DNA of 63,522 nucleotides, filler included, from Planctomycetota bacterium (GTDB lineage: Bacteria; Planctomycetota; Planctomycetia; JALXBF01): NCBI GenBank assembly GCA_026991575.1. It is 4 parts of 4 records of this genome, joined end to end, with 100 filler letters (N's around TTAATTAATTAA, not from the genome) between each part and the next. Parts side by side here need not be neighbours in the genome. Positions count along the whole stretch, not along the records: positions 16,198 to 32,034 come from JALXBF010000119.1; 3 more parts are not named here. One strand, 5' to 3'. A program made the translations under genes and the position numbers. The notes beneath the pieces are model-generated. The model was given only the letters and a program-made list of their open reading frames with translations. It was not told where the DNA came from and did not search any database. Numbering within the stretch: position 1 is the first letter of the stretch; each line of letters starts with the position of its first letter. Shown piece by piece: positions 7,831 through 47,973 of the stretch.

Positions 7831-8261
7831 TTGGCACACACCGTGCCGCGAGCCCCTCCGGGTCGCAACCGACCTCTTCACGACCGCTTGCGTCGTAATG
7901 GCCAATCGAACCGGAGTGGGATTGAACGGCAGCGGGCAGGCTAACCTTCTTCCGTGGCGGATGTCGCAACGCGCAGCGGAGCTGGGAAAGAATTCACGCT
8001 GGCGGGAGAAGATTGGGATCGGAATGACACAGATAGGCTACGGAGCTCCGTGGCGCCGGCTGGGGCACTGTCTTGGCGCCGCCCGTCAGTCACAGTTGGG
8101 GCTCACGCAGGCGCGGTCGATCTGCCGAGTGTGCGCTTCGGGGACTGAATTGGCGAAGCCGACGGGCTGATCCACCCCCCCTGTCGACGACTCGATCCCC
8201 GCCTCATTAGCCCACGCGCGCAGAGCCCCAGTCCAAGAAGAGAGGAAGGAACTCAGCGTGT

Positions 8262-8284
8262 TGTTCTCTGTGTCTCTGTGGTGC
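8262..8284. repeat. Short CTCYGTG periodic repeat, copy 2
   Basis: TGTTCTCTGTGTCTCTGTGGTGC, one mismatch to 6122-6144. Confidence 0.7.
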
Positions 8285-8378
8285 GGTTCTGTCCGGGGCG
8301 AGCGGACACATGTTGGCCTCGTCCGGGAGCGGAACCGCCCCCCCCTGCCTACGCCGGACAGCAAGACGGTTGTCTGGC

Positions 8379-12975: not shown

Positions 12976-13305
12976 CGGCGTACCGCAGTGCTGCGGCGGC
13001 TGTGCGGCATTGGCCTGCTGACCCCACCGGCCGGTGACGTTGGCCCGTGCGACGCATCGCACCAGCTTGACCCGGCTATCGCACGAGTAGCGCCTGATCC
13101 GCGTCGCCAGGGGAAGTCAGCAGGCAGTGCTACCCAGTTACGCTCTCGTAGCGCGTCCTGCAGGCGGGGTACTGCTCAGCGTTAGCACTCATCTGCCGAT
13201 CGGATCGAATCAGTTCCCCGGTTGTGATGCAATCCCGTTGCAGGATCCGCTCGAGGACTTCACCAAGTGTCCCCCGGTGCAGCTTCTTGCCCGGCTCTTG
13301 CGTCG

Positions 13306-16097: not shown

Positions 16098-16197
16098 NNN
16101 NNNNNNNNNNNNNNNNNNNNNNNNNNNNNNNNNNNNNNNNNTTAATTAATTAANNNNNNNNNNNNNNNNNNNNNNNNNNNNNNNNNNNNNNNNNNNN
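16098..16197. other. Artificial contig linker
   Basis: N-run, TTAATTAATTAA (stops in all frames), N-run. Confidence 0.98.
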
Positions 16198-17077
16198 CGC
16201 ACGCTCGAACTGTACCATCGTTAGCGCCCTCTGCACCTTGCATCCAGCTACCGTTGCCCTGTTTGTTTCCCGATCAGCTCAACGCGGCCCCTGTGCCATT
16301 GTTGCGCTCGATGCGACGCCCCTGCCGTCCGCTACGCTCGCCCCCGACGGGCATGAAGCACGTCCACGGACCGGCCCCAATTGGGTGTTTCGATTGCATG
16401 CCTTCCGAAGCGTCTGTTGCGTCGTCCCTGTCCCCCAGCAATAACTCGGTCCAGGAAGACTTTCTGACGGTCGACAGGCACGATGGAACCGCAACGTCGC
16501 TCAGCACGTCCCACTGGTCAGTCAGGCTATCACACGGGCGCTGTCCCACCACAGGAGACTACGGCCGGGAAGGCGAGGCCCACCGCTTCAAACGAACGTG
16601 CCCGGTCAGCTCACTGGCACTGGCCATCTCACGTGCGCGGTAAGCCAAAGGTCGGTCGAACCGTCGATCTTGGTGAGTCCGTGGCGCCGCGCGCGGCGCC
16701 GTGTGCGTGCCAGCAGCGGGAAAAGAGCTTGACCGCACAGCGTGGCCTACTGTTCTGAACAGCCCCGATCACGAGGCGGCAGCGAACGTGCGATCGTTCG
16801 CGCTGGCCGACCCAAGCAGTTGGAGTCGATGGAGACAACGAGCTTCGGGTGGGCACCGATTCAGCGAGTTGGACGTGTTTGTTTGCTCTGCGTCCCGAGT
16901 GCACATCCAGGCCACCGATGGAATGTCGCCGCGTTCAGGGTCATCGGCGGAGACAGGTGTTGTCCGCGATGACCATTGACGGGCCAGCCGCACAAAACGA
17001 AGGCCCGACCATCGAGGGTCGGACCCGGTGTTTCGCACGGCGGCGAGACTGGATTCCGAGGGACCTTGGAAGAAGGG

Positions 17078-18607
17078 TTACGTTTTCGGCTCTCTCTGCT
17101 CGCCCTCGGAACCTGGCTCTTCACCCGGGCCATCCTGCCCCGTGGAGCCGGGATCAGCAACGCCTTCGGACTGTTCTCCCGAGTTGTCCTTGGACTCGTG
17201 CTCGGACGTTGTCGCGCCGACCGTAGCCTCCTCCGACTCGGCTGGCTTTCCTTCGGACTCTGTGCGCACGCCGAGGTCCTGTTCCTGGGTCTCGAAGTCG
17301 AAGAAGTCCTGTTCGTCTTCCTCGGTCCAGATCTCGTCCAGATCTGTGGCATCCACGTCGCGGCGTAGCAGCAGGTAGATTGCCGTGGCGGCGGTCCAGA
17401 AGTAGCTGTAGACGTATGCGCCGCCGGCCAGAGCCATTGTGTACACCCAGAACGCGATCAGGCCGGCGCCGATGGTCTCGACCCCGTCGGCTGGCGTTGC
17501 CTCGCCGGCGCCTGGGAAGATCGGCCAGAGGAACGAGGGCGTTAGCGCAAAGAGCCGTGCAAGCAGCTGGTCGTTCGCCCCCCAGGACACGGCCCAGTAG
17601 CTGAAGTAGAGGATGAGTTGCACGAACAGCAGGAACACGAACGTGGCCAACGACCCGAGCACCACGGTCAGAGCCGCGTAGAAGAGGTAATTCCACGGCC
17701 GTTGCATTGAGTATGCGTAGCAGCGGCTGATCGCGTCGAATGCGTCCGTGCCTTCGACGCTGATGGTCGGCACCATCAGTGGCCAGCCGATGGCCAGGCC
17801 AACGATCAGGAATGCCATCACGATGCCGGCAATCAGTGGCAGGAACCACAAGGTTCCGGCAAAGAGCGGGCCGAAGTACGGGATGTTGGTCACCCAGCCG
17901 CCGACCATGCAGATCAGTGCCACGAAGACGAGGAAGTAGGTGATGATCAGGGGGGCTGACGCGTAGGAGGGAATGTACTTCGCGCAGAAGCTAACGGCCT
18001 CAGTCAGCGAAACCCGCTCGTCGCGGCCGAGCTGCATGGCCGCGATCCGTGCGATGACGCCGCCGATGATGCCCCAGACCAGGGCAGTCCAGACTACCAG
18101 GGCCGACAGGTGCAGGAACAAGCCGTAATCGATGACCCAGCCAACCCAGGGAATCCGTAGCTGGAGTTTGCTTTCCGGGTACCTGGCCGAGAACAGCGGT
18201 GCAAACGGGCTGATCAGCTCGCGGTACGGCGTCAGCACCACGGACCATTGAAGGGCGACGCGGGCCAGCAGGCCGGGCGGATCGTCCAGTCCCGCTGCGG
18301 CGACCGCTACAGGAAGCGTCTGCTCGTCATCGCCATAAATCAGCCAGATCCGCTCCATGAGACCGCCCTCTTCCCAGGGCAGCGCAATGTGGGGCGTCGG
18401 CACGGGGCCTGCCCCTTCGCCCACGGCGTACGCGTTCTGGAACGCCCAGTTGATGGCGAACCAGCCGCCGGTCAGGGCCAGCACGCCGATGATCGCCAGC
18501 AAGAGCTTTCGCGGATCGGCAGACGACTTGCCGCAGCGGACCAGAAGAAGCCAGGGGAAGAGCTGACGGTAGCGGATTTCCGTCAGCGGCGCACGCTGTT
18601 CGCTCAT
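17078..18607 (-). CDS. Polytopic membrane protein with acidic C-terminal tail
   Basis: Several hydrophobic segments; 'YLLLRRDVDATDLDEIW'. Confidence 0.8.
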   Translation of the reverse strand: MSEQRAPLTEIRYRQLFPWLLLVRCGKSSADPRKLLLAIIGVLALTGGWFAINWAFQNAYAVGEGAGPVPTPHIALPWEEGGLMERIWLIYGDDEQTLPVAVAAAGLDDPPGLLARVALQWSVVLTPYRELISPFAPLFSARYPESKLQLRIPWVGWVIDYGLFLHLSALVVWTALVWGIIGGVIARIAAMQLGRDERVSLTEAVSFCAKYIPSYASAPLIITYFLVFVALICMVGGWVTNIPYFGPLFAGTLWFLPLIAGIVMAFLIVGLAIGWPLMVPTISVEGTDAFDAISRCYAYSMQRPWNYLFYAALTVVLGSLATFVFLLFVQLILYFSYWAVSWGANDQLLARLFALTPSFLWPIFPGAGEATPADGVETIGAGLIAFWVYTMALAGGAYVYSYFWTAATAIYLLLRRDVDATDLDEIWTEEDEQDFFDFETQEQDLGVRTESEGKPAESEEATVGATTSEHESKDNSGEQSEGVADPGSTGQDGPGEEPGSEGEQREPKT

Positions 18608-18715
18608 CCCACGCAATCTCCTCGTTACGTGTCCAACGCGCCCAGAAGCGAAGCCCTATTATAAGCGTCTCTTCAACCATGGCACGAGCGGCTCCGGCCG
18701 CTGGCTGGAACCGCT

Positions 18716-18958
18716 CTACGATTGCGGCGAAGAACTCCCCTGCTCGCCCTGACCGCTACGATCCGTCAGGTCCTCCAGCTCCGCCGCCTCGTCCGGCTCG
18801 ACCGCCGGCACGCGATACCGCTCACCGAGCCATCGGCCGAGGTCAATCAGACGGCAGCGTTCGCTGCAAAACGGGAAAGGCGGCCGAGGCCGCCCTTCCT
18901 CCAGGTTCAGTTGCACCGGGTGCCCACAGACCGGGCACTTCAGCAGTTTCCTGCTCAT
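18716..18958 (-). CDS. yacG: DNA gyrase inhibitor YacG
   Basis: 'CPVC...PFCSERCRLIDLGRWL'. Confidence 0.92.
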   Translation of the reverse strand: MSRKLLKCPVCGHPVQLNLEEGRPRPPFPFCSERCRLIDLGRWLGERYRVPAVEPDEAAELEDLTDRSGQGEQGSSSPQS

Positions 18959-19224
18959 GTGAATTTTGAGGAACTACCGTTGCTGGATGACTCTTCCTTG
19001 CAGCACTTCTTTTCGGCCTCTGCGGCTTTCTTGTAGCTGGAACTCCGATAATCGGTTGCGTAGAAGCCGCTGCCCTTGAAGATCACCGCCCCGCCGGCGC
19101 CGATGAGCCGGCGCAGCTTCTGCCGCCCGCAGGACGGGCACTTCTTGCGGGGTGGCTCGGTGATCGAGTGGAAAATCTCGAACTCCTCGCCACAGGCATC
19201 GCAGACGTAGTCATAGGTTGGCAT
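18955..19224 (-). CDS. FmdB-family zinc ribbon protein
   Basis: 'MPTYDYVCDACG..CPSCG..FKGSGFYATDY'. Confidence 0.92.
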   Translation of the reverse strand: MPTYDYVCDACGEEFEIFHSITEPPRKKCPSCGRQKLRRLIGAGGAVIFKGSGFYATDYRSSSYKKAAEAEKKCCKEESSSNGSSSKFT

Positions 19225-19275
19225 CGCTACCCTCCGCTTCGTTGCGTCGCGCTTGCCTGCCGGGCCGGACGGCCT

Positions 19276-19953
19276 CTAGGCAGGCTGATTATCCGTCGGT
19301 CCGTCCGATCGCTGCTCGGCACCGCCCCGCTCGGCCGCCGTCTGGGTCGCTTCCGGTTCCTTGGAAACCACCACCTTGGCTGGCCGCAGTAGGCGGTCAT
19401 GGAACATATAGCCCCGTTGGAGCGTGCGGACGACGCGGCCCGGCGGCAGGTCCTCCCGCTCCTCCTGGGCCACCGCCTCATGATAGGCCGGATCAAAGAC
19501 CTGGTTGTCCGAATCGATTGGTCGGATACCGTGCCGCTCAAATACGCTCAGCAGCTCCTGGTACACCATCCGAACACCCTGGACGATGGCCTCCGCGCCA
19601 GCGACTTTCTCCGCTGCTTCGATCGCTCGCTCCAGATTGTCCAAGACGTTTAGCAGGTCGCGAGCGAACGGCTGTACGGCGAACTTGCGTTCTTCTTCCA
19701 GCTGGCGTGCGACCCGCTTCTGGTAGTTCAGGTAGTCGGCACGGGTGCGCTGCAGCATCTGGAGAAACTCGTCGCGTTCGCGCGCCTTGCGCTGCAACTC
19801 CTCCAAGTCGTGCGCGACTGCCTCAGCAGCTTCCTCCACGTCACGCTGCTGGTCCGTGCCGGCAGCTTCCTGAGGCTCTTGAGGAGGCGTTGACTGCTGT
19901 GCTGTCGTTTCGGTCCCGTGCTGGTTGTGCCTTTCCTCGGCCGACCCGCTCAT
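19276..19953 (-). CDS. grpE: Nucleotide exchange factor GrpE
   Basis: 'ADYLNYQKR', 'FDPAYHEAV', 'GYMFHDRLLRPAKVVV'. Confidence 0.97.
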   Translation of the reverse strand: MSGSAEERHNQHGTETTAQQSTPPQEPQEAAGTDQQRDVEEAAEAVAHDLEELQRKARERDEFLQMLQRTRADYLNYQKRVARQLEEERKFAVQPFARDLLNVLDNLERAIEAAEKVAGAEAIVQGVRMVYQELLSVFERHGIRPIDSDNQVFDPAYHEAVAQEEREDLPPGRVVRTLQRGYMFHDRLLRPAKVVVSKEPEATQTAAERGGAEQRSDGPTDNQPA

Positions 19954-20023
19954 CGCTCCTCCCTCCGGACTCACCACCATAGCTACCACGGCTAGCGTTA
20001 AGCTGCCATCCTTCTGGCGGGGC

Positions 20024-20039
20024 TGCAAATTTTGTGCCA
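20024..20039 (-). promoter_or_regulatory. Putative sigma54 -24/-12 promoter of grpE
   Basis: Minus strand TGGCACAAAATTTGCA (GG-N10-GC). Confidence 0.7.
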
Positions 20040-20169
20040 CCGTTGGACTTGTGGCCCAGCGAGACTCGTTACCAAATCATGACAGATGAACAACTTGCAA
20101 TAGTGCCTCGCGCCGCCTGGCCGTAGGCATGGCATTCTGGCCAGGTCACCTGCCGAACTGGCCGTTCCT

Positions 20170-21348
20170 TCAGGACGACTTGTCCGGCTTCTGGCCCTCG
20201 GAAGACGTCTCCGAGAAGTGCGCCGCGAAATAGTCCTTGAGCCGTTCCAGGAACGACTTCCTCTGCGGCAGCACGTCGCGCTGCTCCAGCGCGGCCAACT
20301 CGCGGAGCAACTCTTCCTCGCGTGCCGTCACCTTCTTGGGAACCTCGATAAAGACGCGCACGATCAGATCACCGCGACGCCCTCCCCTGGGATCGGGCAT
20401 GCCTCGTCCGCGGAGTACGATCACGGAACCGCTCTGTGTACCCGGTTCGATCCGGACACGCTCGGGCCCTTCCAGCGTGGGCACTTCGATCTCAGCACCG
20501 AGGACTGCCTGGGGATAGGAGATCGGGACCTCGATCAACAGGTCTCGTCCGTGCCGCTGGAACAACGGGTGGTCACGTACGACGACTGTGCAGTACAGGT
20601 CACCGCGGGTGGCGCCATTGCTGCCGGGTTCGCCTTCGGCCGGGATATGCAGCTGCGTGCCGGTGTCCACGCCCGGGGGGATGACGATTTCCAACCGGCG
20701 ACGGACACGGACGCGTCCCGCGCCGTCGCATTCGCTGCATCGGGCGGCCTCGGGAATGACCGTGCCCTGACCGTGACAGGCCGGACAGGTGGTCACGACG
20801 CGGAACATGCCCGACATGCGGACCACCTCGCCGGCCCCGCCGCAGTACGCACACGCCACGGGGCGGCGTCCGGGTTCGACGCCAGAGCCCCTGCACCGCG
20901 TACACCATTCGCGTCGCTGGATCTCGATGAGTTTGGTCACCCCCCGGGCCGCTTCCTCCAGGCTGATCACCACCTCGGTTCGCAGGTCGCGGCCCCGCTG
21001 GCCCCGGCGTGCGGCTCGGGAGCCACCGAAGAACGAATCCCACCCGGGGCCAAGGAAGTCGCGGAGCAAGTGATCGAAGATGTCTTCCATGGAGCTGAAG
21101 TCCGGCGCGACCTGCTGGCCCTGGAGGCCGGCGTGGCCGTAGCGGTCGTACAGCGCGCGCTTCTCAGGGTTCGAAAGTACCTCGTAGGCCTCGGCCGCTT
21201 CCCGGAACTTCCGCTCAGCATCCGGATCGTCCGGGTTCCGGTCCGGGTGGTACTTCAGCGCCAGCTTGCGAAACGCCCGTTTGATCGTCTCCTGATCAGC
21301 GTCGCGCGGCACCCCCAAGATTTCGTAGTAATCCCGTTCGGTCGGCAT
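20170..21348 (-). CDS. dnaJ: Chaperone DnaJ
   Basis: J-domain with HPD; four CxxCxGxG repeats. Confidence 0.98.
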
Positions 21349-21470
21349 GGATGGCTCCCTGGAACGGCATCCCCTCAAGGCGCGTCGAGTCAGCGAACTG
21401 CTGCAGCGGGCCAGACGGTTGCCACTCTTCAATGATATCGCGCGCCCATGAGGCAGGCGGCCGGCACCAC

Positions 21471-21504
21471 AAGAAAGCCGCGCGGCAGCCTGCGCCGCGC
21501 GGCT
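21471..21504 (-). terminator. Intrinsic terminator after groEL
   Basis: 11-bp GC stem (21476-21486/21494-21504) followed by TTCTT on the minus strand. Confidence 0.65.
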
Positions 21505-21545
21505 CAGTGTAGCCGATCTGGTCGGTCTTGCCAGTCCAGAACCGA

Positions 21546-23210
<1,665 letters not shown>

Positions 23211-23234
23211 CTATGGCGAGTCGGTCCGCGACGA

Positions 23235-23567
23235 CTACTGGACCACCTTCGCCAGCACGTCACTCTCACGGAGGATCTTCAGCTCCTTGCCATCGATCTC
23301 AATGTCGGTGCCGGAGTACTTGCCGAAGATCACCTCATCGCCCACGGCCACCGACATCGGAGCCCGCTCCCCGTTTTCCAACAACTTGCCGGGCCCCACA
23401 GCGATCACACGGCCGCGTTGTGGCTTCTCCTTAGCCGTATCTGGCAGGACAATCCCACCGGGAGTGACCTCTTCCGACTCGAGCGGCTCAACAACCACCC
23501 GGTCATCCAACGGCTTGAGGGTAACCTTCAGTTCTTCCTTCTTTTCTTTAGTTGCAGCCTTTGCCAT
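23235..23567 (-). CDS. groS: Co-chaperonin GroES
   Basis: '[26 protein letters not shown]'. Confidence 0.99.
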
Positions 23568-23657
23568 CGTGCTAACCTCCCTCCATTACGTCGCACGCTA
23601 TCTCACGTATCGCTCTGCACGATCTCACCGTCAGCAGCCAACCGTCACGTGCGTGAA

Positions 23658-25406
<1,749 letters not shown>

Positions 25407-25409
25407 TCA

Positions 25410-25425
25410 TGCAACGCCCGTACCG
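25410..25425 (-). promoter_or_regulatory. Putative sigma54 promoter of groEL
   Basis: Minus strand CGGTACGGGCGTTGCA (GG-N10-GC). Confidence 0.5.
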
Positions 25426-25550
25426 ACAGCGGAGGCGAGACGCAACCGATTGCAAAGAAGTGCCTTACTGGCACGCGGCCCGCAACGACCACGGTCCTAG
25501 CCCCTGCCATCCTGACACCCGTCCCGCCACGGGCGGTTCCGACCTGGCAG

Positions 25551-26105
25551 TCAGCGGCTATCGGGCGGCCGCACCACTTCCAGCAACAGCACCGTCGGCC
25601 CCTCACCACAGTGGATCACCGCAGTCCGACCGTAGCAGAGCTCGTTGCGCTGGAGCCCAAACCACCGGCACCACTGGTCGTTCGGCTCAAACGCCCAGTA
25701 TGCCATGGGCACGACGGTGCGAAGCGGATGGTGGGCAATGAGGATCGTGCCCAGCGGCGTACGAGCCTCCAGAACCTGACGAGCCACTTCCGGACCAACC
25801 GCGGCCAGGTCCAGCGCCATGATGCCAAACTCAACAGGACGCTCTTGACCCGTGACGTCCAGGAGCACGGCACGCGTGTACCAGTGGCCACGACGTGCTC
25901 GCTCAAGCACGCGGATCGTAACCTCGCCCCCGTAGAACTCCTCTAGCGTCGTCGTCATGTGCGCCCGGTGCTGCAGGAGCCGGCGAGCGTCCGGCGGCAT
26001 CTCGGGCGGGTCGACCGGGCGATACAGCGGGCAGCGCAGTCGGCGAAACGCGGCGAAGAAGGTGGCCGGCTCATGCAAGTCAAGTGCATATGTGTCGATG
26101 CTCAT
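25551..26105 (-). CDS. Chorismate-lyase/UTRA-fold (DUF98-like) protein
   Basis: 'HMTTTLEEFY', 'TRAVLL', 'PLGTIL', 'YGRT' pattern. Confidence 0.6.
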   Translation of the reverse strand: MSIDTYALDLHEPATFFAAFRRLRCPLYRPVDPPEMPPDARRLLQHRAHMTTTLEEFYGGEVTIRVLERARRGHWYTRAVLLDVTGQERPVEFGIMALDLAAVGPEVARQVLEARTPLGTILIAHHPLRTVVPMAYWAFEPNDQWCRWFGLQRNELCYGRTAVIHCGEGPTVLLLEVVRPPDSR

Positions 26106-26164
26106 CGGCCTCCGGCCCCGCTTGCATACCTCGGCAGCATCGCCCGCCCGCGCAGCTGCAGCAG

Positions 26165-27988
26165 CTAGGTCGTGGGCTGAATCACGGGCAACGGACTGGT
26201 CCCGAGCTGGTCGCTCGGCGTGTAGTCCAGGACCGTGTCGAGCAAGAAGACCAGCAGATCCCGCAGCGGCTCCACGTCGACCGACTCGGCAACCTCCCGC
26301 GCTCGCTCCCGGTACTTCTTGACCAGCCGGTACGCTTTCTCAAAGACGCCCAACTCCGCGAACAGGCCGCGAAGCCGTTGCACGGCCGCCAGGTCGCGGC
26401 CGTCGCCCTGAAGCGTCGGCTCCAGCGCGGCCCGCAGCCGCCGGTCGTCAGCATCGAGCGCGAGGGCAAGCAGGAGTGTGGGACGGGCCGAGAGGGCGTC
26501 CTGTCCGGCGAGCAGTTTGTTATGGTCGTCACCGTCCCAGTCCTTCAAGTCGTTAATGATCTGGAAGGCGATGCCCACGTGACGCGTGTAAGCGGTAACC
26601 TTCTGGGCCAGATCGCCGACCGGGCCGGCCAGGCGCAGGCCCGTGTAGAGCGCCGCCTCGAAGGCCGGTGCGGTCTTCAGGGCGTAGATCCGCAGCGCCT
26701 CCAACGGGGTCAGCCTCTTGTCGGTGCTTTCACGCCAGATGAGCTCGGCTCCTTGCCCTTCGGCCAGCTTCAGGTGCGCGTCCGCCATGCAGCGAAGCAC
26801 GTCGGCAACCGCGTCCGCAGGAACCTGCTCGCCATCATCCGGCTTTAGCAGCCGGTACCCCAGCCCGATCAGGTAATCGCCAACGTTCAACGCGACCGGT
26901 AGCCCATGGGTGCGGTGCAGTGTCTCGCGGCCGTAACGGTACAGGTCGTCGTCCTCGATGTCATCGTGCACCAGTGAGGCTTTATGGAAGACCTCAATCG
27001 CCATCGCCGCCCGGCAGACGAACCGGGGCAAGCGAAGCGGCAGTTCTTCGTCCAGCACGGCGCCGTCGGAGGCAGCGCCACCGGTCATTGCGTCATAGCT
27101 TGCAAGGGTGATGAACGGGCGAAACCGGCGTCCGCCGCGGGCGAGAAAATCAAACGCAATCGCCTCGGTGGCTGCCACCGGGTCCGTCATCGGATCGGCC
27201 CCTTCCGGCAGCTGGGCCAGGCGAGTACGTGGCACGAACTGCTCGACCGTACCCGGCTCGAAGAGCTGCTTAGCCAGCCGCATCAGCGGCAGGTAGCTCC
27301 GGGTGCGCACCGGCGGTGGCTCCGTGCGCCACTCGATCACTTCGGCCACCCAGTCCTCGTCCACCGACGTTTCCTTACATTTGTTCGATAGCAGCGGGAC
27401 GGCAATCGCCGGCACGCCGACCTGAAGGACCTTATTGAACGCTTTCTCCAGCACGTCCAGGCAGGCCACCCCGAGGATGGCGTCGACGTAACCGCTGACG
27501 ATAATCTTCAGCACGATCGGGGTGCCTTCAGCCACGAGCACCTTGTAGCCGAGCTCCTCGGCACGCCGCTTGAAGTCGGCAATCACGCACGCGCCGCACT
27601 CCAGACACTGCAACCCGAACTCGTCATAATCGGCCGGACAGCCTTCGGCGTGCTTGAGACAGTGAGGCAGCAAGAGCATGCGGCGGCTGAAGTCGACCGA
27701 CATGAACTGGTCGCGCCAGAACTCGTTCGACAGACAGACCATGGCGAAGCCGGTGTAGCTTCGGGGCAGACCGGCCTCGTCGAGCAATTTCTCTGCTTGG
27801 CCCTGGAGAAACTCGCGACTGAGCGGTTTGCTGCGGTCAAAGCTGCGGGCGGTCTCGGCCGCCAGTGCGCGAATGCGATCGCGCAGCTCCCTGCTGGGCG
27901 GCACCACTTTCAGGTGTGCCGTACTCGGTCGTCGCGGCGTCTGCTTGCCGTTCTCCAGCCGCTCGGGTCGTGACTCAGGCACAGCCAC
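26165..27988 (-). CDS. DUF116 domain fused to polyprenyl diphosphate synthase
   Basis: 'LLPHCL..C..C..C..C..GVAC'; first Asp-rich motif 'HDDIEDDD..RYG'; second motif 'FQIINDLKD'. Confidence 0.88.
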   Translation of the reverse strand: MAVPESRPERLENGKQTPRRPSTAHLKVVPPSRELRDRIRALAAETARSFDRSKPLSREFLQGQAEKLLDEAGLPRSYTGFAMVCLSNEFWRDQFMSVDFSRRMLLLPHCLKHAEGCPADYDEFGLQCLECGACVIADFKRRAEELGYKVLVAEGTPIVLKIIVSGYVDAILGVACLDVLEKAFNKVLQVGVPAIAVPLLSNKCKETSVDEDWVAEVIEWRTEPPPVRTRSYLPLMRLAKQLFEPGTVEQFVPRTRLAQLPEGADPMTDPVAATEAIAFDFLARGGRRFRPFITLASYDAMTGGAASDGAVLDEELPLRLPRFVCRAAMAIEVFHKASLVHDDIEDDDLYRYGRETLHRTHGLPVALNVGDYLIGLGYRLLKPDDGEQVPADAVADVLRCMADAHLKLAEGQGAELIWRESTDKRLTPLEALRIYALKTAPAFEAALYTGLRLAGPVGDLAQKVTAYTRHVGIAFQIINDLKDWDGDDHNKLLAGQDALSARPTLLLALALDADDRRLRAALEPTLQGDGRDLAAVQRLRGLFAELGVFEKAYRLVKKYRERAREVAESVDVEPLRDLLVFLLDTVLDYTPSDQLGTSPLPVIQPTT

Positions 27989-29834
27989 TACTAGCCTCCA
28001 CCTCCGATCCACCTTGCCCCACGACCGTCGCAGTTGCCTGCTGCCGCACGGCAAGCCAGCCGTCGACCAGGGCCTGCGTGCCGAAGATCATGGGGTACAG
28101 GCGTTCGAAGTACCACAGTTTAGCGAAGTATAGGCCGATCGGCGCAGGCCGTAGCCACTGGCCCTCCTCCAGCCGCTGCCCCAACCAGGCAAGCCCCCGC
28201 AGCAGCGGCTCGCGCGGGCCGTTTCGGCACGCGGCCAGAGCGGTCACGGCCAAACCGGTTTCCTCAACCGTGGCCGCTAACCCAGGCCCACCTCCCCAAC
28301 CGCCGTCGTCGTGTTGGCACGACGTCAGCCAGCGCAGCGCCCGTTCAGCCGCTCGGGCTGCCGGCTCCGCCGTCCGCGCCTGCTGGGCAAGCAGCTCCAG
28401 CGCAAGCAGCACCCGGGCCGTGCCATATAGCGGGTTCTGCTGCTCAGGGTGCTGTTCGTTGCCGAACCACAGCGGCACGAAGCTACCGTCGTCCCGCTGG
28501 GTCTTGAGCAGATAGTCCAGGCCGCGGCCCATGGCCCGATCCATGCGGCGTGCCATGTGCCCGCTTCGGAACACGCCACGCCATGCGTACAGGGCGCGCA
28601 GGGCGTGTGCCGTCAGGTCTGGGGCACTCTGGTCAAAGGGCAGCCAGCCCCAGCCGCGGCAGAACGTAGGCCAACCGCCGTCTCGGTTCTGAAGCGTCAA
28701 CAGCCACCGGATCGCCCTTTGGGCGGCGAACCGCACCTGCGGTCGATCCGCGCTGGGGCGGACTGCCAGGAGCGCAGCTGCGGTATCGTCCGCGTCGGGA
28801 ACAGAGCCGGGCAAGTCGGTCCAGCCCCAGCCTCCGGCAGCTGTGCCCGTGTACGGATGCGGTTGGCGGTGCTGGCAGGCCAGCAGCCAGCGGCGGGCGG
28901 CAGCCGTATCGGCGGGCGCTGGATCCAGTCCCCCCCGGACAGCGCGCTCCAGCACGTGCAACGTCAGACTGGTCAGCCAGCAGGCCAGGTCGGCATCCAC
29001 CGGCCAGCTGCCATCGGACCGCTGCAGCCGTCTCAGAAACTGAAGACCACCGGTGACGACCGGATCGTGGCAACGACCGACCGCCATCAGGCTCATGCAC
29101 ACGAACGCCGTCAACGGGACGGCTTCCAGGTACCCACCGCTTACGGGCTGAATCCGCCTCAAGCGGCGCAGCGCCAGCGGCACGACCACAGGCCAGCTCA
29201 TGCGACGCAGCCGGCCGGCATTGCGGCTAGCCCCGCAGTAGCCGATGGCAATCAGTGCTGGCAGCGCATAGGAGACCACGCCGATCTGTAGTCCGCGGAG
29301 CAGACGGTGTGGCAGGATGCCCAATTCGAACGGCAGTGCGGGGAGCTCGTCCCAGGCAACCTCCCCGGCGATGGCCAGCATGGTCATGATCGGCACGACA
29401 AATGTCCGGTCCGTGCCATAACGGGCCCGCAGCGCGGCCAGCCCACCGGAACGTGCCACGTACTGGCGGGCCGCGGACACGACCGAGCGGTATCGGCGGT
29501 CTGCCCCGGTGATCCGCAGCGCGGCCAGGGCAAGCAGCGATGTGGCGATGTTGCTGCGGCAACCCGGCGCGTCGCCCCAGCCACCGTCGCCGTTTTGATC
29601 TGCGACCAGCCACTCAATCCCAGCAGCCACCGCCGCGTCATCGTGCGCGTTGGCCATGCCCGCCCGACCCGCCAGGCACAGTGCGGCGCAGGCAGTGGCC
29701 GTAGCCAGGGCTGAAGAGGCCAACTCGCCCCGCCAGCAACCTGCAGCGGTCTGCTCGCCAGCCAGGGCGGTCACAGCCTGCTGTGCCCAGCGTCGCAGGC
29801 GCTTCGGCTCAAGTTGGCCGGGGGGAAACGTCAT
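27975..29834 (-). CDS. Squalene-hopene cyclase-like class II terpene cyclase
   Basis: Catalytic 'PDADDT'; several QxxDGG/SW repeats; 'IGLYFAKLWY'. Confidence 0.9.
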   Translation of the reverse strand: MTFPPGQLEPKRLRRWAQQAVTALAGEQTAAGCWRGELASSALATATACAALCLAGRAGMANAHDDAAVAAGIEWLVADQNGDGGWGDAPGCRSNIATSLLALAALRITGADRRYRSVVSAARQYVARSGGLAALRARYGTDRTFVVPIMTMLAIAGEVAWDELPALPFELGILPHRLLRGLQIGVVSYALPALIAIGYCGASRNAGRLRRMSWPVVVPLALRRLRRIQPVSGGYLEAVPLTAFVCMSLMAVGRCHDPVVTGGLQFLRRLQRSDGSWPVDADLACWLTSLTLHVLERAVRGGLDPAPADTAAARRWLLACQHRQPHPYTGTAAGGWGWTDLPGSVPDADDTAAALLAVRPSADRPQVRFAAQRAIRWLLTLQNRDGGWPTFCRGWGWLPFDQSAPDLTAHALRALYAWRGVFRSGHMARRMDRAMGRGLDYLLKTQRDDGSFVPLWFGNEQHPEQQNPLYGTARVLLALELLAQQARTAEPAARAAERALRWLTSCQHDDGGWGGGPGLAATVEETGLAVTALAACRNGPREPLLRGLAWLGQRLEEGQWLRPAPIGLYFAKLWYFERLYPMIFGTQALVDGWLAVRQQATATVVGQGGSEVEASSGCA

Positions 29835-29846
29835 CGGAGCTTGTCT

Positions 29847-31373
29847 TCAAGCGGTCAGCCGTCTGCTCTCCCAGATGAACTTCGCCGTCCACTGGACAAT
29901 CTGCAACCGCCCGGTAAGCTGGATGAACAACCTGCGCCAGAGGGGGGCGCCCGCCCCAGCCTGGTTGTCCCAATACATCCGTGGGATCCACTTGAAGTTC
30001 AGGTTGTAGCTGAGACGGAAGAGACGCCAGTGCAGGTCAGTCATGTCGCGGATGGTGAACGGCCGTCCGAGTCGGGGATCGACGGGACTGTAGAAGATCG
30101 GGAAGATTACCACGCGTTCGTTGTACAGCCGCTCGATCCAGCGCACCGTCGCCTCGACATGCTCGGGCTGCTCACCCGGCAAGCCCATAATCAGGCTTAC
30201 CATCGGGAAGAAGCCTGCCCGAGCCAGCCGCCGCACCGTCTCCTCGCACAGCTCCCCCCACTCCTCTACGCGATACGGCCGAATCTTGCCGCCTTTCTGG
30301 TTCATCTCCAGCAGCTCACCGGAGGCGGTCTCGACCCCAAGATTGACCCACAAGTACTCGTGCCGCTGGCCGTCGACCAGGATGTCATGGATTTCTCGGA
30401 GGTCATCGTCGGAGAGCGCAGCGGCCGACGTGACGTTGCAGTGGTCAAGCTGGATCAATTTCAGGTCTGGCAGGGAACGGAGCGTGCGGCACAATTGCTT
30501 CACCGCTTCGGCCCGGACCTGCCCCCGCACGGAACCGTAGCGGAAGAAATCCTCGCTCAGGGCGCAAATCGAGCGGACCCCCGCGGCAAGGTTGGCTTCC
30601 ACGTCGCGCACGATGGTTTCCAGCGGTAGGTGAATCATCCGCTCGCGTGCAATGGTGCAGAACTGGCAGCCCTTGCCGCAGCCGCGACTGACCTCGATCA
30701 CCCCCATGCACGTAGCTCCATGGATCGCGGGGATTTCGTTCGGCCCGACGCCGTTGGCGTAGATGACAAACGGCAGTGGCTCGCCCGAAGCGACCCTGCG
30801 GAACAACTCCGGGGCATCCTGCTCGGCATAGCCCCGGACCACATGGTCAATGCCAAGCCTGCGGGCCACACGCGGGTGTTGTTCAAGCTGCCAGGCACCG
30901 GCACCGCCGGCAAGAATGCGAAAGCGATAGCCAGCCGAGCTGCGGAGCCGGTCAAGCTGCCGCAGCATCCGTCGGTACCAGGTGTGCGTGTACAGCCGCC
31001 CGCCGGCCATGTCAGTCATGGTGGTGTTGGACATGCCGTAGCCGAGCGGATCGCTTGACGAGACGGCGACGATGCGCGTTTCCGGGCCGATGACCCGCTC
31101 CAGCTCCTCCGGCCGCACGACGATGACCTCCGACCGGTCGAAGCCACCGCGCAGCAGACCGGCTTCGATCCGGCGCACCCCCAACGGCGCCTTCACCGCG
31201 CGCAGCCCCCGACGCGGCATCGGAGGCGCCACGCAGTAGCGCATGATCGGCTCGGGCACGCTCGTCGTCTGGATCGTGCCCATCATGCCATCGAAGAGCA
31301 CGTCATAGTTGGCCATCAACGTGCGATCGGCAGTGAGAACGATCGGGTAGCCGCCCGGTCGCTTCCCGGCCAT
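29847..31373 (-). CDS. Radical SAM protein with B12-binding-like N-terminal domain (archaeal Grs/Gms-like)
   Basis: 'EVSRGCGKGCQFC'; N-terminal 'IVLTADRTLM', 'APLGVRRIEA', 'DPLG', 'GGAGAWQ'. Confidence 0.85.
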   Translation of the reverse strand: MAGKRPGGYPIVLTADRTLMANYDVLFDGMMGTIQTTSVPEPIMRYCVAPPMPRRGLRAVKAPLGVRRIEAGLLRGGFDRSEVIVVRPEELERVIGPETRIVAVSSSDPLGYGMSNTTMTDMAGGRLYTHTWYRRMLRQLDRLRSSAGYRFRILAGGAGAWQLEQHPRVARRLGIDHVVRGYAEQDAPELFRRVASGEPLPFVIYANGVGPNEIPAIHGATCMGVIEVSRGCGKGCQFCTIARERMIHLPLETIVRDVEANLAAGVRSICALSEDFFRYGSVRGQVRAEAVKQLCRTLRSLPDLKLIQLDHCNVTSAAALSDDDLREIHDILVDGQRHEYLWVNLGVETASGELLEMNQKGGKIRPYRVEEWGELCEETVRRLARAGFFPMVSLIMGLPGEQPEHVEATVRWIERLYNERVVIFPIFYSPVDPRLGRPFTIRDMTDLHWRLFRLSYNLNFKWIPRMYWDNQAGAGAPLWRRLFIQLTGRLQIVQWTAKFIWESRRLTA

Positions 31374-32034
31374 CAGAGCTCCATGCTCTCGAGCTGATCG
31401 ATGAGATCGTCAAGTTCGTCGCGCTGTTTTGGTTGCGTACGACCATCCCCCCGCTGTTTGGCGGACAGCGATCCAACCGGCGCCCGGCCGGCTTTGACCA
31501 GCTCGCGGTCCCGTTCCTTGATCGCCAGCGTCAGCGGATCTTCACCACCGAACAGTCGCGACAGATCGAGCTTCAGCCCGCCACCCTCGCCATCGCCCGC
31601 CCCGGCGATCGCCGGCGTCTTGTGCATCGGAAACATGATTGCCCCTTCCGGACACACGCGGCTGCAGGCCGGACAGCCGCGGCGACAGTTGTCCGGCTGC
31701 TCGACCAGGATCCGTTCCTGGCCGTCTAGCCCGTAGACGCCAAACAAGCAAAAGTCGATGCATTCCATGCAGTTCGTGCAGCGACTGTAGTCGATGACCG
31801 GATACCACCGCCGGGGCAACGCGCCATCCACGGCCCGGACCGGCGCGGCGGTCGAGGCAGGACCGGCCTTCAGCGGCACGGTCTGAACAGCCAGCTCGGC
31901 GCGGATGCGTCGAATCTCGGCAAGCACCGAGTCGGCATCCGCGACGTCCTTGAGACCAATGCAATAGATGGCCCGCTGCGGTAGCGGGTCGATCAACCGT
32001 GGCTCGGCTGGATCGGCTAATGGGTCAACCTGAC
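31373..32034 (-). CDS. 2x[4Fe-4S] ferredoxin-family protein, 5'-truncated
   Basis: 'CTNCMECIDFC' and 'CRRGCPACSRVCP'; stop codon overlaps the next start. Confidence 0.88.
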
Positions 32035-32134
32035 NNNNNNNNNNNNNNNNNNNNNNNNNNNNNNNNNNNNNNNNNNNNTTAATTAATTAANNNNNNNNNN
32101 NNNNNNNNNNNNNNNNNNNNNNNNNNNNNNNNNN
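32035..32134. other. Artificial contig linker
   Basis: N-TTAATTAATTAA-N. Confidence 0.98.
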
Positions 32135-35835: not shown

Positions 35836-37110
35836 GTGCAGAGCAGGCAGTTCAGAGAAGCAGGCCACGAACCGGACGAGGAGCAGCTGCAGCGCCGCCT
35901 GGCGTACTTCCGGCTTGGTCCAGCGGAACTGGCCCGGCTGAAGGAGGTTGGCCAACAGTTCGAAGACTACCTGGCCGGATTCGTGGATTTCTTTTATACC
36001 CACCTTCAGAGCTTCCCGGAAACGGGCCGTTTTCTCCGCGACCCGCAGCTTGTCGATCGCCTCAAGCAGGCTCAGCAGCAGTACTTCCGGTCGTTGTTCG
36101 AGGGCAAGCTGGACAACGCCGTGGTCGAGTACCGGTACCTGATCGGCAGGAAGCATGCTGAGGTGGGGTTGGCACCGCAGTGGTTCCTGGGCGCGTACGC
36201 GCTGTATCTGGAGTTCTGCGTCGGCCAGCTGGCACGATCGGGGCTGCCGAAGGAGAAAGCCGATCTACTGGTCGCGCTGGTAAAGTTCATCCTTTTTGAC
36301 GTTAGCCTCACACTGGAGGCGTACTTCCGCCGCGCGACGGAGCACATCCGGCTTGCACTGCAGATGCTACAGGAGTCGAATGCGGAGCTGAAGGACTTTG
36401 CCCGCCTGGTCAGCCATGACCTGCGCACGCCGATCGCTACGGTGATGGGCCTGTGTGAAGAGTTCATCGACGAGTACGGTGACCAGATACCGGCTGGAGC
36501 GCGCGAGTTGGTTGAGGAGGCACGTGCTCAGACGCGCCGCATCGCCCACCTGCTACATGAGCTGACAAACATCTCTCAGGCAAGCGGGGACCTTGCCGCC
36601 CGCGAGTTGGTCTCACCCCGGGCACTGCTCGATGAGGTGATCGACCGGCTTCGGCCGGAGATCGAAGCCAAGGGGGTTCGGATCCAGATCCAGGATAAGC
36701 TGCCCCGCGTCTGCGTCCACCCGGGTCGTTTTCGCGAGATCTTTTACCAACTGCTGTCTAACGCGGTGAAATTCTCCGAGGGCGAAGCGCCGGTTGTGAG
36801 GGTGTATGCTGAAGAGGGTCAAGGGGCACACACGTTTTTCGTTGCCGATCAAGGGCCGGGCATTCCCGAGGACGTGCTCGACCTCGTTTTCCTGCCGTTC
36901 TGGCGCATGCCGAAGCACCGCGACGTACCGGGCACGGGCCTGGGGTTGTACTTCGTGAAGACGATGGTCGAGGAGCAGGGCGGGCGGATCGAGCTGCGTC
37001 CGCTACCGGAAGGCGGCACGCTCGCGGCAGTGACTCTGCCTGCCGCGCGCTCCCCACACCCTCCCCCCCTCTGGCCTCAGTCAGACACGGAGCGCACCGA
37101 TGCAAGTTAA
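35836..37110 (+). CDS. Globin-coupled (protoglobin) sensor histidine kinase
   Basis: 'FYTHL', proximal His 'IGRKHAEVGL'; H-box 'SHDLRTP', 'NAVKF', 'DQGPGI', 'GTGLGL'. Confidence 0.9.
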   Translation: MQSRQFREAGHEPDEEQLQRRLAYFRLGPAELARLKEVGQQFEDYLAGFVDFFYTHLQSFPETGRFLRDPQLVDRLKQAQQQYFRSLFEGKLDNAVVEYRYLIGRKHAEVGLAPQWFLGAYALYLEFCVGQLARSGLPKEKADLLVALVKFILFDVSLTLEAYFRRATEHIRLALQMLQESNAELKDFARLVSHDLRTPIATVMGLCEEFIDEYGDQIPAGARELVEEARAQTRRIAHLLHELTNISQASGDLAARELVSPRALLDEVIDRLRPEIEAKGVRIQIQDKLPRVCVHPGRFREIFYQLLSNAVKFSEGEAPVVRVYAEEGQGAHTFFVADQGPGIPEDVLDLVFLPFWRMPKHRDVPGTGLGLYFVKTMVEEQGGRIELRPLPEGGTLAAVTLPAARSPHPPPLWPQSDTERTDAS

Positions 37111-41737: not shown

Positions 41738-44700
41738 ATGAGCGAACCGCAACGGCCGTTTTACCGCCTCATGGTGGGAACGCTCCTGCCGTGGCTGCTT
41801 CTTGCAGGGTCAGCCTGCGCCGAGCAACCCAAACGGCAGCCGCTCCGGGCTGGTGCATCAGCCGTCGACATCACTCCGCAGCAATTCCCCGTGATTGTCA
41901 ACGGGTCGTTCCTGGAGAAGAAAGCGACCAAAGCCTATGACCGGCTCAAAGCTCGTGCACTGGTATTGGATGACGGCGTCAGTAGAGTTGCACTGGTCGT
42001 TGTCGACAGCCTGATGCTGCCACGCGCGTTACTTGACGAGGTTAAGCAGGAGGCTCAGCGACGTACCGGCATTCCCAGCAGCCGAATCCTGATCGCTGCC
42101 ACGCACACTCACTCGGCCCCTTCCGCCATGGCCTGTCTGGGCAGTCGGCGTGATGATGCCTACGTGGCGTTCTTGAAGCCGCGTCTGGTGCAAGCCATTG
42201 AGCGAGCTGCCGCTCGGTTGACCGAGGCAGAGATCGGCTGGACCGTTGTGCCTGCCACGACGTTGAACCACTGCCGCCGGTGGATCTTCCGGCCCGATCG
42301 CGTCGGGCGCGACCCGTTTGGCAACCCGACCGTTCGGGCGAACATGCACCCCGGTTACCAGAGTCCCAATCACATCGGCCCCGCCGGCCCGGCGGATCGA
42401 GAACTGACCGTCGTAGCCGTGCGCAGACCGGGCGGGACGTTGATGGCAGTGCTGGCAAATTTCGCCTTCCACTACTACGGCACTGCGCCTGTCTCCGGCG
42501 ACGTGGCCGGTCGTTTCGGGCCGACCCTTGCCCGGCTGCTGGGCATCGACCGGTCGGAAGCGTTTGTCGGCATGCTCAGCCAGGGAACTTCCGGCGACAG
42601 CATGTGGATGGACTACAGCCGGCCGGCGCCGAAGCGAGACATGGACGCTTACGTGGGGCAATTGGCTCGGCTGGCGGCCAGCGCATTGGATCGTCTCTCG
42701 TACCGGCGTCGCGTACCGCTGGCGATGGCCGAGGCCGAGCTCACGCTGCGGCGACGCGTGCCGGATGAGAAGCGCCTGGCGTGGGCACGTCAGATTGTGG
42801 CCCGCATGGGGGACCGGTTGCCACGCAACCTGCAGGAGGTCTACGCCAGGGAGGCCATCTACCTGGCACGCGACCCGGTCGCCCGCCTGAAGCTACAGGC
42901 CATCCGCATCGGCGAGCTGGGCATTGTGGCAATGCCTAACGAGGTCTACGGCATCACCGGGATGAAGATCAAGCTGGCGAGCCCGCTGCCGACGACTTTC
43001 GTCATCGAGCTGGCCAACGGAGCGGAGGGCTACATCCCACCGCCCGAACAGCATGTCCTTGGCGGTTACACGACCTGGCCGGCTCGCACGGCCGGGCTCG
43101 AGGTTACCGCCGAACCGAAGATCGTCCAGACCGTGCTCGGCCTGCTGGAAAAGGTGGCCGGTGAGAAGAGGCGACCGATCAGAGATCCGGTGCACCGTTA
43201 CGCGCAGGCGGTGCGTCGATTGAAGCCGGCAGGCTGGTGGCGTCTGGGCGAGATTTCGGGCACAACGGCACATGACGCGGCCGGCCGTCATGACGGCCGC
43301 TACGAGCCGGGTGTTGTCTTCTACCTGCCCGGGCCGCACGGTGAAGGCTTCGCAGGGGGACGGTTCGGCAACCGGGCCGCTCAGTTCGCCGGCGGCCGGG
43401 TCCGGGTGAGGTTGGGGCAGGTGCCTGAGCAATACAGCATTGCGTTCTGGTTCTGGAACGGCCTGCCTGACCGCACACGCGCGGTCACAGCCTATCTCGT
43501 TTCGCTGGGCAGAGAGGGAGACCGCCAGGCTGAGGGGGACCATGTTGGCCTAGGCGGTACTGCCGAGCCGGGAATGGCAGGTAAGCTGTTCTTCTTCAAC
43601 GGGAACCGGGACCACACGCTAATCGTGGGCAAGACCACCGTGCCGCTGCGACGGTGGACTCACGTCGTCTTCGTCCGAGACGGACGTAGGGTCAGGCTGT
43701 ACGTGGACGGGAGGCTGGATGCCGAGGGTGAAGCCCCGGTGACGCGGCCGGTCAAAGAGGTGGAGCTATTCCTGGGAGGTCGCTGTGACCGCTTCGCGCC
43801 GCTTGAGGGCCGGCTCGATGAGGTTGCGTTCTTCAACCGGGTGCTATCGGACGATGAGGTGGCGGCGTTATTCGAAGCCTCTGGTCTGCGTCCGCTTGCC
43901 GAAGCTGCCGCGGCCGGCCCAACCCATCCCGAGTCGCCTCCTCTGGCCCCGTCAGAAGCATTGCGCGCGATCCACGTGCGGCCGGGTTATCGAGTCGAAC
44001 TGGTCGCCGCCGAACCGCTGGTACAGGACCCGGTAGCCATCGCCTGGGGCAACGACGGCAAACTGTGGGTCGCCGAGATGGCCGACTACCCCCTGGGAAT
44101 CGACGGCAAGGGCAAGCCGGGCGGTCGCATCCGGTTCCTGGAAGACACCGATGGCGACGGCCGCTATGACCGGTCCGTGGTCTTCCTGGAGAGTTTACCT
44201 TTTCCGAATGGTGTCATGCCCTGGCGCGGCGGCGTTCTCATCACCTCCGCGCCGAACATCCTCTACGCGGAGGACACGGACGGCGATGGCCGGGCAGACC
44301 GGACGGAGATCCTGTTCAGCGGGTTCCATGAGGGCAACCAGCAGCTCCGGGTCAACGGTCTGCGGTGGGGCCTGGACAACTGGGTGCACTGCGCGAACGG
44401 TCGGCATCGAGCGGGCTATCGAGGCGCGGACCAGGTCGTTTCGGTCAAGACCGGCCGGCAACTGCTCCTGGGCAGCCGCGATTTCCGTTTTCAGCCGGAC
44501 ACGGGCCGGCTGGATCCGGAGTCGGGTCCCAGCCAGTTTGGCCGCACGCGCGACGATTGGGGCAACTGGTTCGGCTGCATGAACAGCTGGCCGATGTGGC
44601 ACTACGTGCTGCCGGACCGTTACCTGCGGCGGAACCCCCACTTCGTGCCTCCCGATCCACGTCACCAGCTGTTCACTCCCATGAACCCAAGGGTCTACCC

Positions 44701-47873: not shown

Positions 47874-47973
47874 NNNNNNNNNNNNNNNNNNNNNNNNNNN
47901 NNNNNNNNNNNNNNNNNTTAATTAATTAANNNNNNNNNNNNNNNNNNNNNNNNNNNNNNNNNNNNNNNNNNNN
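47874..47973. other. Artificial contig linker
   Basis: N-TTAATTAATTAA-N. Confidence 0.98.

Follow-up and report, generated by a model that had tools for sequence, protein, structure and literature searches.

A probable Grs-type radical SAM enzyme in a conserved bacterial cassette of terpene cyclase and polyprenyl synthase genes

What does a radical S-adenosylmethionine (SAM) enzyme do between a ferredoxin gene and a terpene cyclase gene in a planctomycete? This question is raised by one locus of a Planctomycetota bacterium (NCBI GenBank assembly GCA_026991575.1, labelled G000; 4.96 Mb, 97.8% complete). The gene, P0001, lies in the window, which is the whole stretch of 63,522 nucleotides (nt) that was analysed. 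The first-pass annotation had compared its product with the archaeal enzymes that form rings or cross-links in glycerol dialkyl glycerol tetraethers (GDGTs). Our analysis suggests that P0001 very probably belongs to the Grs-type radical SAM family, as one of its bacterial members, and the operon links it strongly to a terpenoid pathway. In a conserved isoprenoid cassette of bacteria, it appears to be an optional part with a tailoring role. The full reading, in which a Grs-type enzyme tailors the terpenoid of this cassette by radical chemistry, stands at about an even chance.

The window comprises four contigs of G000 (C117, C119, C120, and C123) joined by N runs at 16098-16197, 32035-32134, and 47874-47973, each joint having paired 44-N runs around a 12-base island. 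Genes on the two sides of a joint are not neighbours, and anything past 32134 is unlinked to the radical SAM gene, which sits on C119 (window 16198-32034). The features of P0001 are as follows.

29847..31373, minus strand: probable Grs-type radical SAM gene (P0001, 508 amino acids, aa), intact open reading frame (ORF) with an ATG start
~30744-31373, minus strand: N-terminal Rossmann-like domain (predicted model)
30657..30680, minus strand: CGKGCQFC (CxxxCxxC), radical SAM [4Fe-4S] cluster site, residues 232-239 (motif, conservation)
~30084-30743, minus strand: radical SAM partial barrel (predicted model)
~29850-30083, minus strand: two long C-terminal helices (predicted model)

The N-terminal motifs on which the first-pass annotation was based are all present in P0001: IVLTADRTLM (residues 11-20), APLGVRRIEA (62-71), DPLG (108-111), and GGAGAWQ (156-162), followed by the CxxxCxxC motif. 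Across 49 aligned relatives from bacteria and archaea, these motifs contain invariant residues (P63, G65, R67, E70, P109, G111, G156, G157, G159, W161, and Q162), and C232, C236, and C239 are invariant as well; these positions indicate that the motifs are not due to chance. The three cluster cysteines are also the only invariant cysteines of the alignment. The last 130 residues of P0001 are cysteine-free, and the N-terminal domain holds the single non-conserved C47. In the Pfam search, the sole match of P0001 was Radical_SAM (PF04055, residues 226-413, E 6.5e-13); neither the B12-binding family PF02310 nor SPASM was matched. The AlphaFold2 model (predicted local distance difference test score 93.7) is composed of a Rossmann-like N-terminal domain, a partial barrel, and two long C-terminal helices. 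Foldseek placed it closest to MgmA, MiaB, TsrM, AprD4, RimO, OxsB, CysS, and TokK, with a template modelling (TM) score of ~0.5. AprD4, a solved relative of like layout, is not known to use cobalamin. By sequence, the closest solved protein is the methyl-coenzyme M reductase (MCR) glutamine methylase MgmA (9ccb; E 3.9e-6). GrsA (Saci_1585; WP_011278400.1 in PMC11868695) and GrsB (Saci_0240) of Sulfolobus acidocaldarius close cyclopentane rings in isoprenoid chains. Their AlphaFold models also have a Rossmann-like N-terminal domain, a partial TIM barrel with CX3CX2C, a C-terminal helix, and no auxiliary cluster (PMC13459092), and the predicted layout of P0001 is the same.

A search with a word-indexed method found 787 relatives of P0001. 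The best 120 of these are 48-87% identical; the organism-named members among them are all bacterial (Verrucomicrobia, Planctomycetes, Brocadiia, Armatimonadota, and Blastocatellia), and 2 of the 120 carry a precomputed PF02310 match. Searches from archaeal members returned names that were all archaeal, including Thermoplasmatota, Bathyarchaeota, Thermoproteota, Hadarchaeales, Archaeoglobaceae, Syntropharchaeia, Nanoarchaeia, several Asgard groups, and DPANN; the one of these searches that was directed at a low-GC archaeal clade gave DPANN and Asgard names and none from Sulfolobus. An exhaustive HMMER search of 1.84 billion representative sequences gave 784 matches at E<=1e-3, 350 at <=1e-10, and 161 at <=1e-30, and the family is discrete among these representatives. 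The scan of species genomes located a P0001 homologue in 20 bacterial and 17 Hadesarchaeal loci. P0001 and the Hadesarchaeal homologue share 31% identity over 472 aa (E 2e-67, residues 7-464 aligned), and the Hadesarchaeal homologues carry every motif listed above. Moreover, three Hadesarchaeal genomes have exactly one strong P0001 match each (E 1e-64 to 1e-68), the runner-up being at 7e-9 or weaker.

A quick tree was built by maximum likelihood (LG+G4) from 122 full-length proteins, its only branch support being the Shimodaira-Hasegawa-like approximate likelihood ratio test (SH-aLRT). In it, the 12 bacterial proteins with names make up a single clade (SH-aLRT 100) within a wider family that also holds a named archaeal clade. 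The tree is rooted through one outgroup branch of great length, which makes the root unreliable, so the direction of transfer is not firmly claimed. The first-pass annotation had described a mostly archaeal group with an N-terminal B12-type domain that covers both Grs and Gms enzymes. What was recovered is a discrete family, archaeal for the most part, whose members carry a Rossmann-like domain at the N terminus; the grouping with Gms was not recovered. Gms also acts as a radical SAM enzyme on isoprenoid lipid chains; however, it belongs to the SPASM/Twitch subfamily with three reported [Fe4S4] clusters (PMC11214058, PMC13459092), whereas P0001 has no SPASM match and no conserved cysteines besides its three. 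The Gms identity was rejected on these grounds.

The archaeal context suggests which family this is. At locus L041 of Hadesarchaea DG-33 (8355-17357), the homologue adjoins a classical B12-binding radical SAM gene (Gmm-like). An AhbD-like SPASM radical SAM gene (Gms-like) lies ~2 kb off, and a UbiA prenyltransferase gene further out; the cluster is interrupted by genes for a class I aminoacyl-tRNA synthetase (W/Y type) and a tRNA-intron endonuclease. This arrangement mirrors the gmm-grs-gms cluster of Thermococcus guaymasensis (PMC11214058). In addition, grs homologues were reported from Hadarchaeia using a GrsA/B profile (E<=1e-40, >=400 aa; preprint 10.1101/2022.08.15.504015) and from Planctomycetota (PMC11868695). 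The Grs-type relationship is therefore well supported but indirect, being drawn from the L041 context, the Hadarchaeia survey, and the predicted fold. Published cut-offs for full-length similarity to S. acidocaldarius GrsA and GrsB are a coverage of >=70%, an identity of >=20%, and E<=1e-40. The likeness of P0001 to GrsA/B is gauged through the archaeal homologues (31%, E 2e-67), and both have an isoprenoid context. Unlike GrsA/B, P0001 belongs to a separate bacterial clade, and its host is a bacterium without a geranylgeranylglyceryl phosphate synthase (GGGPS) or Tes-like gene.

The two-domain layout also suggests another possibility, that P0001 is a cobalamin-dependent C-methyltransferase which modifies a cyclic terpenoid in the manner of HpnP and HpnR (+14 Da). 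Most characterized radical SAM enzymes of this layout are methylases, and MgmA, TsrM, CysS, and TokK among the closest folds are methylases. The class B methylases (HpnP/HpnR, Gmm, TokK, and MgmA) share the architecture with P0001 at a TM score of ~0.5; however, P0001 has no family-level sequence match to them and no PF02310 match. The NCBIfam search gave sub-threshold matches only, the best being TIGR04013 (80 bits, with the cut-off at 251) and the next ones models of the MiaB/RimO type. The HpnP, HpnR, HpnJ, and HpnH models had no P0001 match at E<=0.01, and the same is true of the class B models in general apart from weak matches to the core; whereas the Gmm-like protein of L041, a genuine class B neighbour that served as positive control, matched many of them strongly (HpnJ 3.9e-80, HpnR 4.8e-44, and also BchE). 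The separation of P0001 from the HpnP/HpnR methylases thus holds. A methylase would also need methylcobalamin, whereas CbiC, CobS, and any PF02310 protein over the cut-off were not found in G000; cobalamin uptake genes were not searched. The nearest family in the published surveys is a ring synthase, for which cobalamin is predicted and not demonstrated. A methylase is therefore unlikely here.

Two related identities were also rejected. For HpnP/HpnR/HpnJ, the lack of a match at E<=0.01 to the NCBIfam equivalog models, TIGR04367 and TIGR03471 among them, coincides with the lack of a canonical squalene-hopene cyclase (SHC) and of an SQS_PSY protein in G000. For the MiaB/RimO methylthiotransferases, TIGR00089 reached 48.9 bits against a cut-off of 251, and the N-terminal domain has no conserved cysteines, whereas enzymes of this family bear a three-cysteine auxiliary cluster there, along with a TRAM domain; genuine MiaB, MtaB, and RimO genes are found elsewhere in G000.

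The neighbouring genes point to the pathway. Their features, all on contig C119, are as follows.

31373..32034, minus strand: ferredoxin-like gene, 2x[4Fe-4S] domain with N- and C-terminal extensions, 5'-truncated at the end of C119
27975..29834, minus strand: SHC-like class II terpene cyclase gene (P0002, 619 aa), 12 nt past the P0001 stop
28785-28796, minus strand: DADD, the DxDD motif of P0002, residues 347-350
26165..28054, minus strand: gene for a DUF116-trans-polyprenyl synthase fusion; longest ORF, overlapping the 3' end of the cyclase gene, true start uncertain
27335-27769, minus strand: Pfam match to DUF116 (cysteine-rich, predicted electron-transfer domain)
26390-27154, minus strand: trans-polyprenyl synthase domain of the fusion
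26945-26965, minus strand: DDIEDDD, first Asp-rich motif of the synthase
26540-26554, minus strand: NDLKD, second Asp-rich motif of the synthase

The gene does stand between a ferredoxin gene and a terpene cyclase gene, as had been described. The stop codon of the ferredoxin-like gene and the ATG of P0001 share one base; this overlap and the 12-nt spacer before the cyclase gene indicate a single operon. The order along C119, on one strand, is ferredoxin-like, radical SAM, cyclase, and DUF116-synthase, followed by two GroEL, DnaJ, and GrpE genes. The ferredoxin-like ORF is open up to the end of C119, and the copy in the closest relative has 320 aa.

The same neighbours recur across bacteria. 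The window proteins were compared by tblastn with the 20 bacterial loci, which span Planctomycetota, Acidobacteriota (including Blastocatellia), Verrucomicrobiota, and Armatimonadota. In 19 of the 20, the ferredoxin-like gene precedes the radical SAM gene; the exception (L028) has no upstream flank. The cyclase gene is downstream in 19 of the 20, and in the exception (L014) the contig stops 300 bp past the radical SAM gene. DUF116 and the synthase follow the cyclase in 16, and three of the misses are contig ends. None of these neighbours (ferredoxin-like, cyclase, and DUF116-synthase) was found by tblastn in the 17 Hadesarchaeal loci. Clustering of flanking ORFs and family scans revealed further linked genes in the 20 bacterial loci: a GcvH-like protein with a conserved lipoyl-lysine motif in 14 (for example L011, 8402-8860), a ~310-aa prenyltransferase-type alpha-alpha-toroid protein in 12, a BamB-like beta-propeller protein in 9, and a family 4 glycosyltransferase (GT4) in 8. 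In G000, the GT4 gene (L047, 5878-7230) and a 320-aa toroid gene (7782-8744) stand together on contig C39, unlinked from the core. The GcvH-like orthologue, 50-54% identical, is on contig C155 (L046, 6700-7176), where it adjoins SurE. The cassette proposed here would therefore consist of the GcvH-like, ferredoxin-like, SHC-like class II cyclase, and DUF116-synthase genes, often with the small toroid and GT4 genes.

The frequent GcvH-like gene might suggest a role outside lipids, in which P0001 matures a redox protein or cofactor of the cassette, for instance by modifying the GcvH-like carrier. Besides the linkage in 14 of the 20 loci, complexes of lipoyl synthase with H protein are among the distant fold matches of P0001. 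However, the GcvH-like gene is unlinked in G000, cassettes without a P0001 homologue retain their GcvH-like and ferredoxin-like genes, and P0001 lacks the auxiliary-cluster cysteines that sulfur-inserting enzymes require. Such a role is very improbable.

The distribution of the genes suggests a more optional place for P0001 within the cassette. Among 201 Planctomycetota genomes, a P0001 homologue was detected in 13 (E<=1e-40) and the cyclase in 53 (E<=1e-60), and all 13 radical SAM carriers are also cyclase carriers. This nested pattern is what makes P0001 look like an optional tailoring enzyme. In the class of G000, which itself has one gene copy of the P0001 family, 8 of the 9 genomes are cyclase-positive and radical SAM-negative. 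Two genomes with a P0001 homologue (G008 and G176) are complete, at 9.3-9.5 Mb; the radical SAM gene stays there with the ferredoxin-like, DUF116-synthase, and toroid genes.

Two cassettes without the gene are informative. Locus L051 contains the GcvH-like, ferredoxin-like, cyclase, and DUF116-synthase genes, and the ferredoxin-like gene abuts the cyclase gene; its retention there suggests that it is a part of the core cassette and not the private reductant of P0001. At locus L054 (2864-6513; G173, of the same class as G000, Grs-type gene absent), the slot is held by another radical SAM gene. A CobW-like GTPase and a 396-aa radical SAM protein of the NirJ/AhbD class (SPASM class) are encoded between the GcvH-like and DUF116-synthase genes, which suggests that the slot after the ferredoxin-like gene takes different radical enzymes. 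The L054 protein shares 29% identity over 214 aa with the Hadesarchaeal Gms-like protein. The similarity is confined to the radical SAM core, and the protein was therefore not accepted as a Gms-like orthologue.

Published surveys would give these genes another product. Bacterial GrsA homologues of Planctomycetota, Cloacimonadota, and Acidobacteriota metagenomes, collected with S. acidocaldarius GrsA as BLAST query (E<1e-30, >=30% identity; PMC11868695), probably coincide, in whole or in part, with the proteins considered here. They have been read as candidates for ring formation in branched GDGTs (brGDGTs), and the available text does not mention a cyclase/synthase operon. In this interpretation, P0001 would be a ring synthase of brGDGTs or other membrane-spanning lipids. 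Solibacter GrsA/B homologues were proposed for brGDGT rings (PMC10087280), GrsA BLAST matches in 94 of 684 Planctomycetota metagenome-assembled genomes (MAGs) led to the suggestion of ringed brGDGTs (PMC11868695), and grs was found in four Acidobacteriae MAGs (preprint 10.1101/2022.08.15.504015). The P0001 family is likewise present in Blastocatellia and Planctomycetota. On the other side stand the isoprenoid operon around the gene in 19 of the 20 loci and the SHC-like cyclase in all 13 carriers. Since genes for a class II cyclase and a polyprenyl synthase share the operon of P0001, a GDGT would not be its substrate.

The genome of the host is also not suited to a tetraether. In the 97.8%-complete assembly, to which all negatives on G000 refer, the following were not found: a hopene-cyclase-grade SHC, a member of the SQS_PSY (squalene/phytoene synthase) family, PcrB/GGGPS, and a Tes-like frame of at least 300 aa with two CxxxCxxC motifs, a feature reported for Tes (PMC8941075). 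The motif scan did return 37 single-motif frames, that of P0001 included, so the scan was working. These absences speak against squalene, hopanoids, archaeal ether lipids, and Tes-made tetraethers as substrates, and leave the prenyl product of the cassette itself as the obvious candidate. The GDGT substrate pathway (Tes, GGGPS) that goes with a Grs-type host is thus absent from G000, which lowers the case for P0001 being a GDGT ring synthase and not the case that it works like one. The brGDGT interpretation is quite unlikely for P0001. The terpenoid of the cassette is its probable substrate.

Several observations weigh against the reading of P0001 as a Grs-type tailoring enzyme of the cassette. 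The Grs link rests on uncharacterized archaeal homologues and published surveys, not on the S. acidocaldarius GrsA/B sequences. An identity of 31% leaves room for a functional shift; for example, a B12-dependent radical SAM protein that is 31% identical to a methylase turned out to be a desaturase (preprint 10.1101/2025.10.20.683597). Without CbiC, CobS, or a PF02310 protein over the cut-off, the use of cobalamin by P0001 in G000 is doubtful. No reductase is conserved in the cassette, whereas Grs acts on saturated chains. As for the genes themselves, no DUF116 or synthase match was found in the 4.7 kb downstream of the L028 cyclase, and the cyclase gene is ~550 kb (G008) and ~440 kb (G176) from the radical SAM gene. 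The cassette also persists without a P0001 homologue, and its ferredoxin, persisting beside the cyclase in L051, is ruled out as dedicated to P0001.

The mechanism that would follow from the tailoring reading can be outlined. The synthase domain would make a prenyl diphosphate, head-to-tail or possibly irregular, and the cyclase would cyclize it by protonation through the DxDD motif. Electrons, we infer, would reach P0001 through the ferredoxin-like and/or DUF116 iron-sulfur modules. The reduced enzyme would then cleave SAM to the 5'-deoxyadenosyl radical, which might act on the terpenoid by taking hydrogen from one of its unactivated carbons. The analogy with Grs would make a new C-C bond and an extra ring (-2 Da) the likeliest outcome, with desaturation or methylation less likely. 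The proposal of the first-pass annotation, that a bacterial terpenoid undergoes radical ring closure or cross-linking, fits the operon as far as gene content can tell; a C-C ring closure by P0001 is nevertheless put forward tentatively, at somewhat less than an even chance.

Other radical chemistry on the terpenoid may also be considered, such as anaerobic desaturation (Ted-like) or an intermolecular C-C cross-link. Lipid-modifying radical SAM homologues that are about equally identical give different outcomes (preprint 10.1101/2025.10.20.683597), and the different SPASM-class enzyme in the L054 slot suggests that this slot accepts varied radical chemistry. However, nothing favours these reactions over ring closure, and the characterized desaturase belongs to the classical B12 clade, to which P0001 has no match. 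Their probability is low, much like that of methylation.

The partner enzymes are themselves unusual. P0002 is the sole G000 match to the hopene-cyclase model, and reaches 72 bits against a cut-off of 431. It fits the SHC-like clade of the PVC/FCB groups and Acidobacteriota, whose function is orphan and which has a polyprenyl synthase nearby (PMC7306690, PMC12414744). The DxDD motif is conserved in this clade as in P0002, and the clade probably uses a substrate other than squalene. Geranylgeranyl diphosphate (GGPP) and farnesyl diphosphate (FPP) synthases are the enzymes closest to the synthase domain. The second Asp-rich motif of this domain is NDLKD, in place of the DDxxD of GGPP/FPP synthases, and all 17 fusions compared share the Asn. 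NDxxD is a significant motif of chrysanthemyl diphosphate synthases, enzymes that couple isoprene units in an irregular way. One preprint gives weak support for NDxxD in these synthases (10.1101/169417). By its sequence, NDLKD may therefore hint at irregular prenyl coupling or another non-canonical reaction, as a lead only. DUF116 has seven invariant cysteines, CxxCGxC among them. An earlier study predicted a flavodoxin-like domain with a role in electron transfer, and noted that it is fused to a polyprenyl synthase in Pirellula (PMC5898192).

Parts of this picture were already known, namely the bacterial GrsA/B homologues as brGDGT candidates (PMC10087280, PMC11868695, 10.1101/2022.08.15.504015) and the SHC-like cyclase with a nearby synthase. 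In a full-text literature search that left most subscription journals outside, no paper was found that links bacterial GrsA homologues to a cyclase/synthase operon. A term search of the available texts did not find 'radical SAM' in PMC7306690 or PMC12414744, nor 'ferredoxin' in PMC12414744; the main text and one supplement of PMC7306690 lack 'radical' and 'ferredoxin', and that supplement lacks 'DUF116'. Unlike these accounts of the SHC-like clade, the present comparison includes radical SAM, ferredoxin-like, and DUF116 genes as conserved parts of the cassette.

This bears on the use of such genes as markers. Counts of GrsA homologues in metagenomes are used as evidence for tetraether cyclization in bacteria, and feed palaeoclimate proxies. 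If the P0001 clade consists of terpenoid operon genes, the inference of brGDGT cyclization would be unsafe for it, and bacterial 'GrsA homologues' in metagenomes would not be markers of that process. The SHC-like clade is a recognized orphan in the evolution of triterpenoid cyclases, and the defined cassette in G008 and G176 makes its product directly testable. If the tailoring reading is right, an archaeal lipid-tailoring enzyme would have been reused in bacteria, and it would be unusual chemistry for one terpenoid to undergo cationic cyclization and then radical C-C closure. The product could be a source of orphan biomarkers. As a wider and rather doubtful possibility, some members of the Planctomycetota, Verrucomicrobiota, Acidobacteriota, and Armatimonadota might make an undescribed polycyclic isoprenoid lipid, in which the SHC-like cyclase fuses rings and the Grs-type enzyme, acquired once from archaea, closes more on unactivated carbons.

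Some other genes of the window were also observed. A 184-aa ORF (25551-26105) without a family match lies between the synthase gene and the first GroEL gene. The two GroEL-type chaperonin genes, DnaJ, and GrpE occupy 19276-25355 (minus strand), immediately after the cassette in its direction of transcription. Contig C120 encodes a protoglobin-sensor histidine kinase at 35836-37110 (plus strand). The same contig also encodes a 1678-aa protein at 41738-46774 (plus strand), which combines ceramidase-like, laminin-G, DUF7133, HEAT, and cytochrome c domains.

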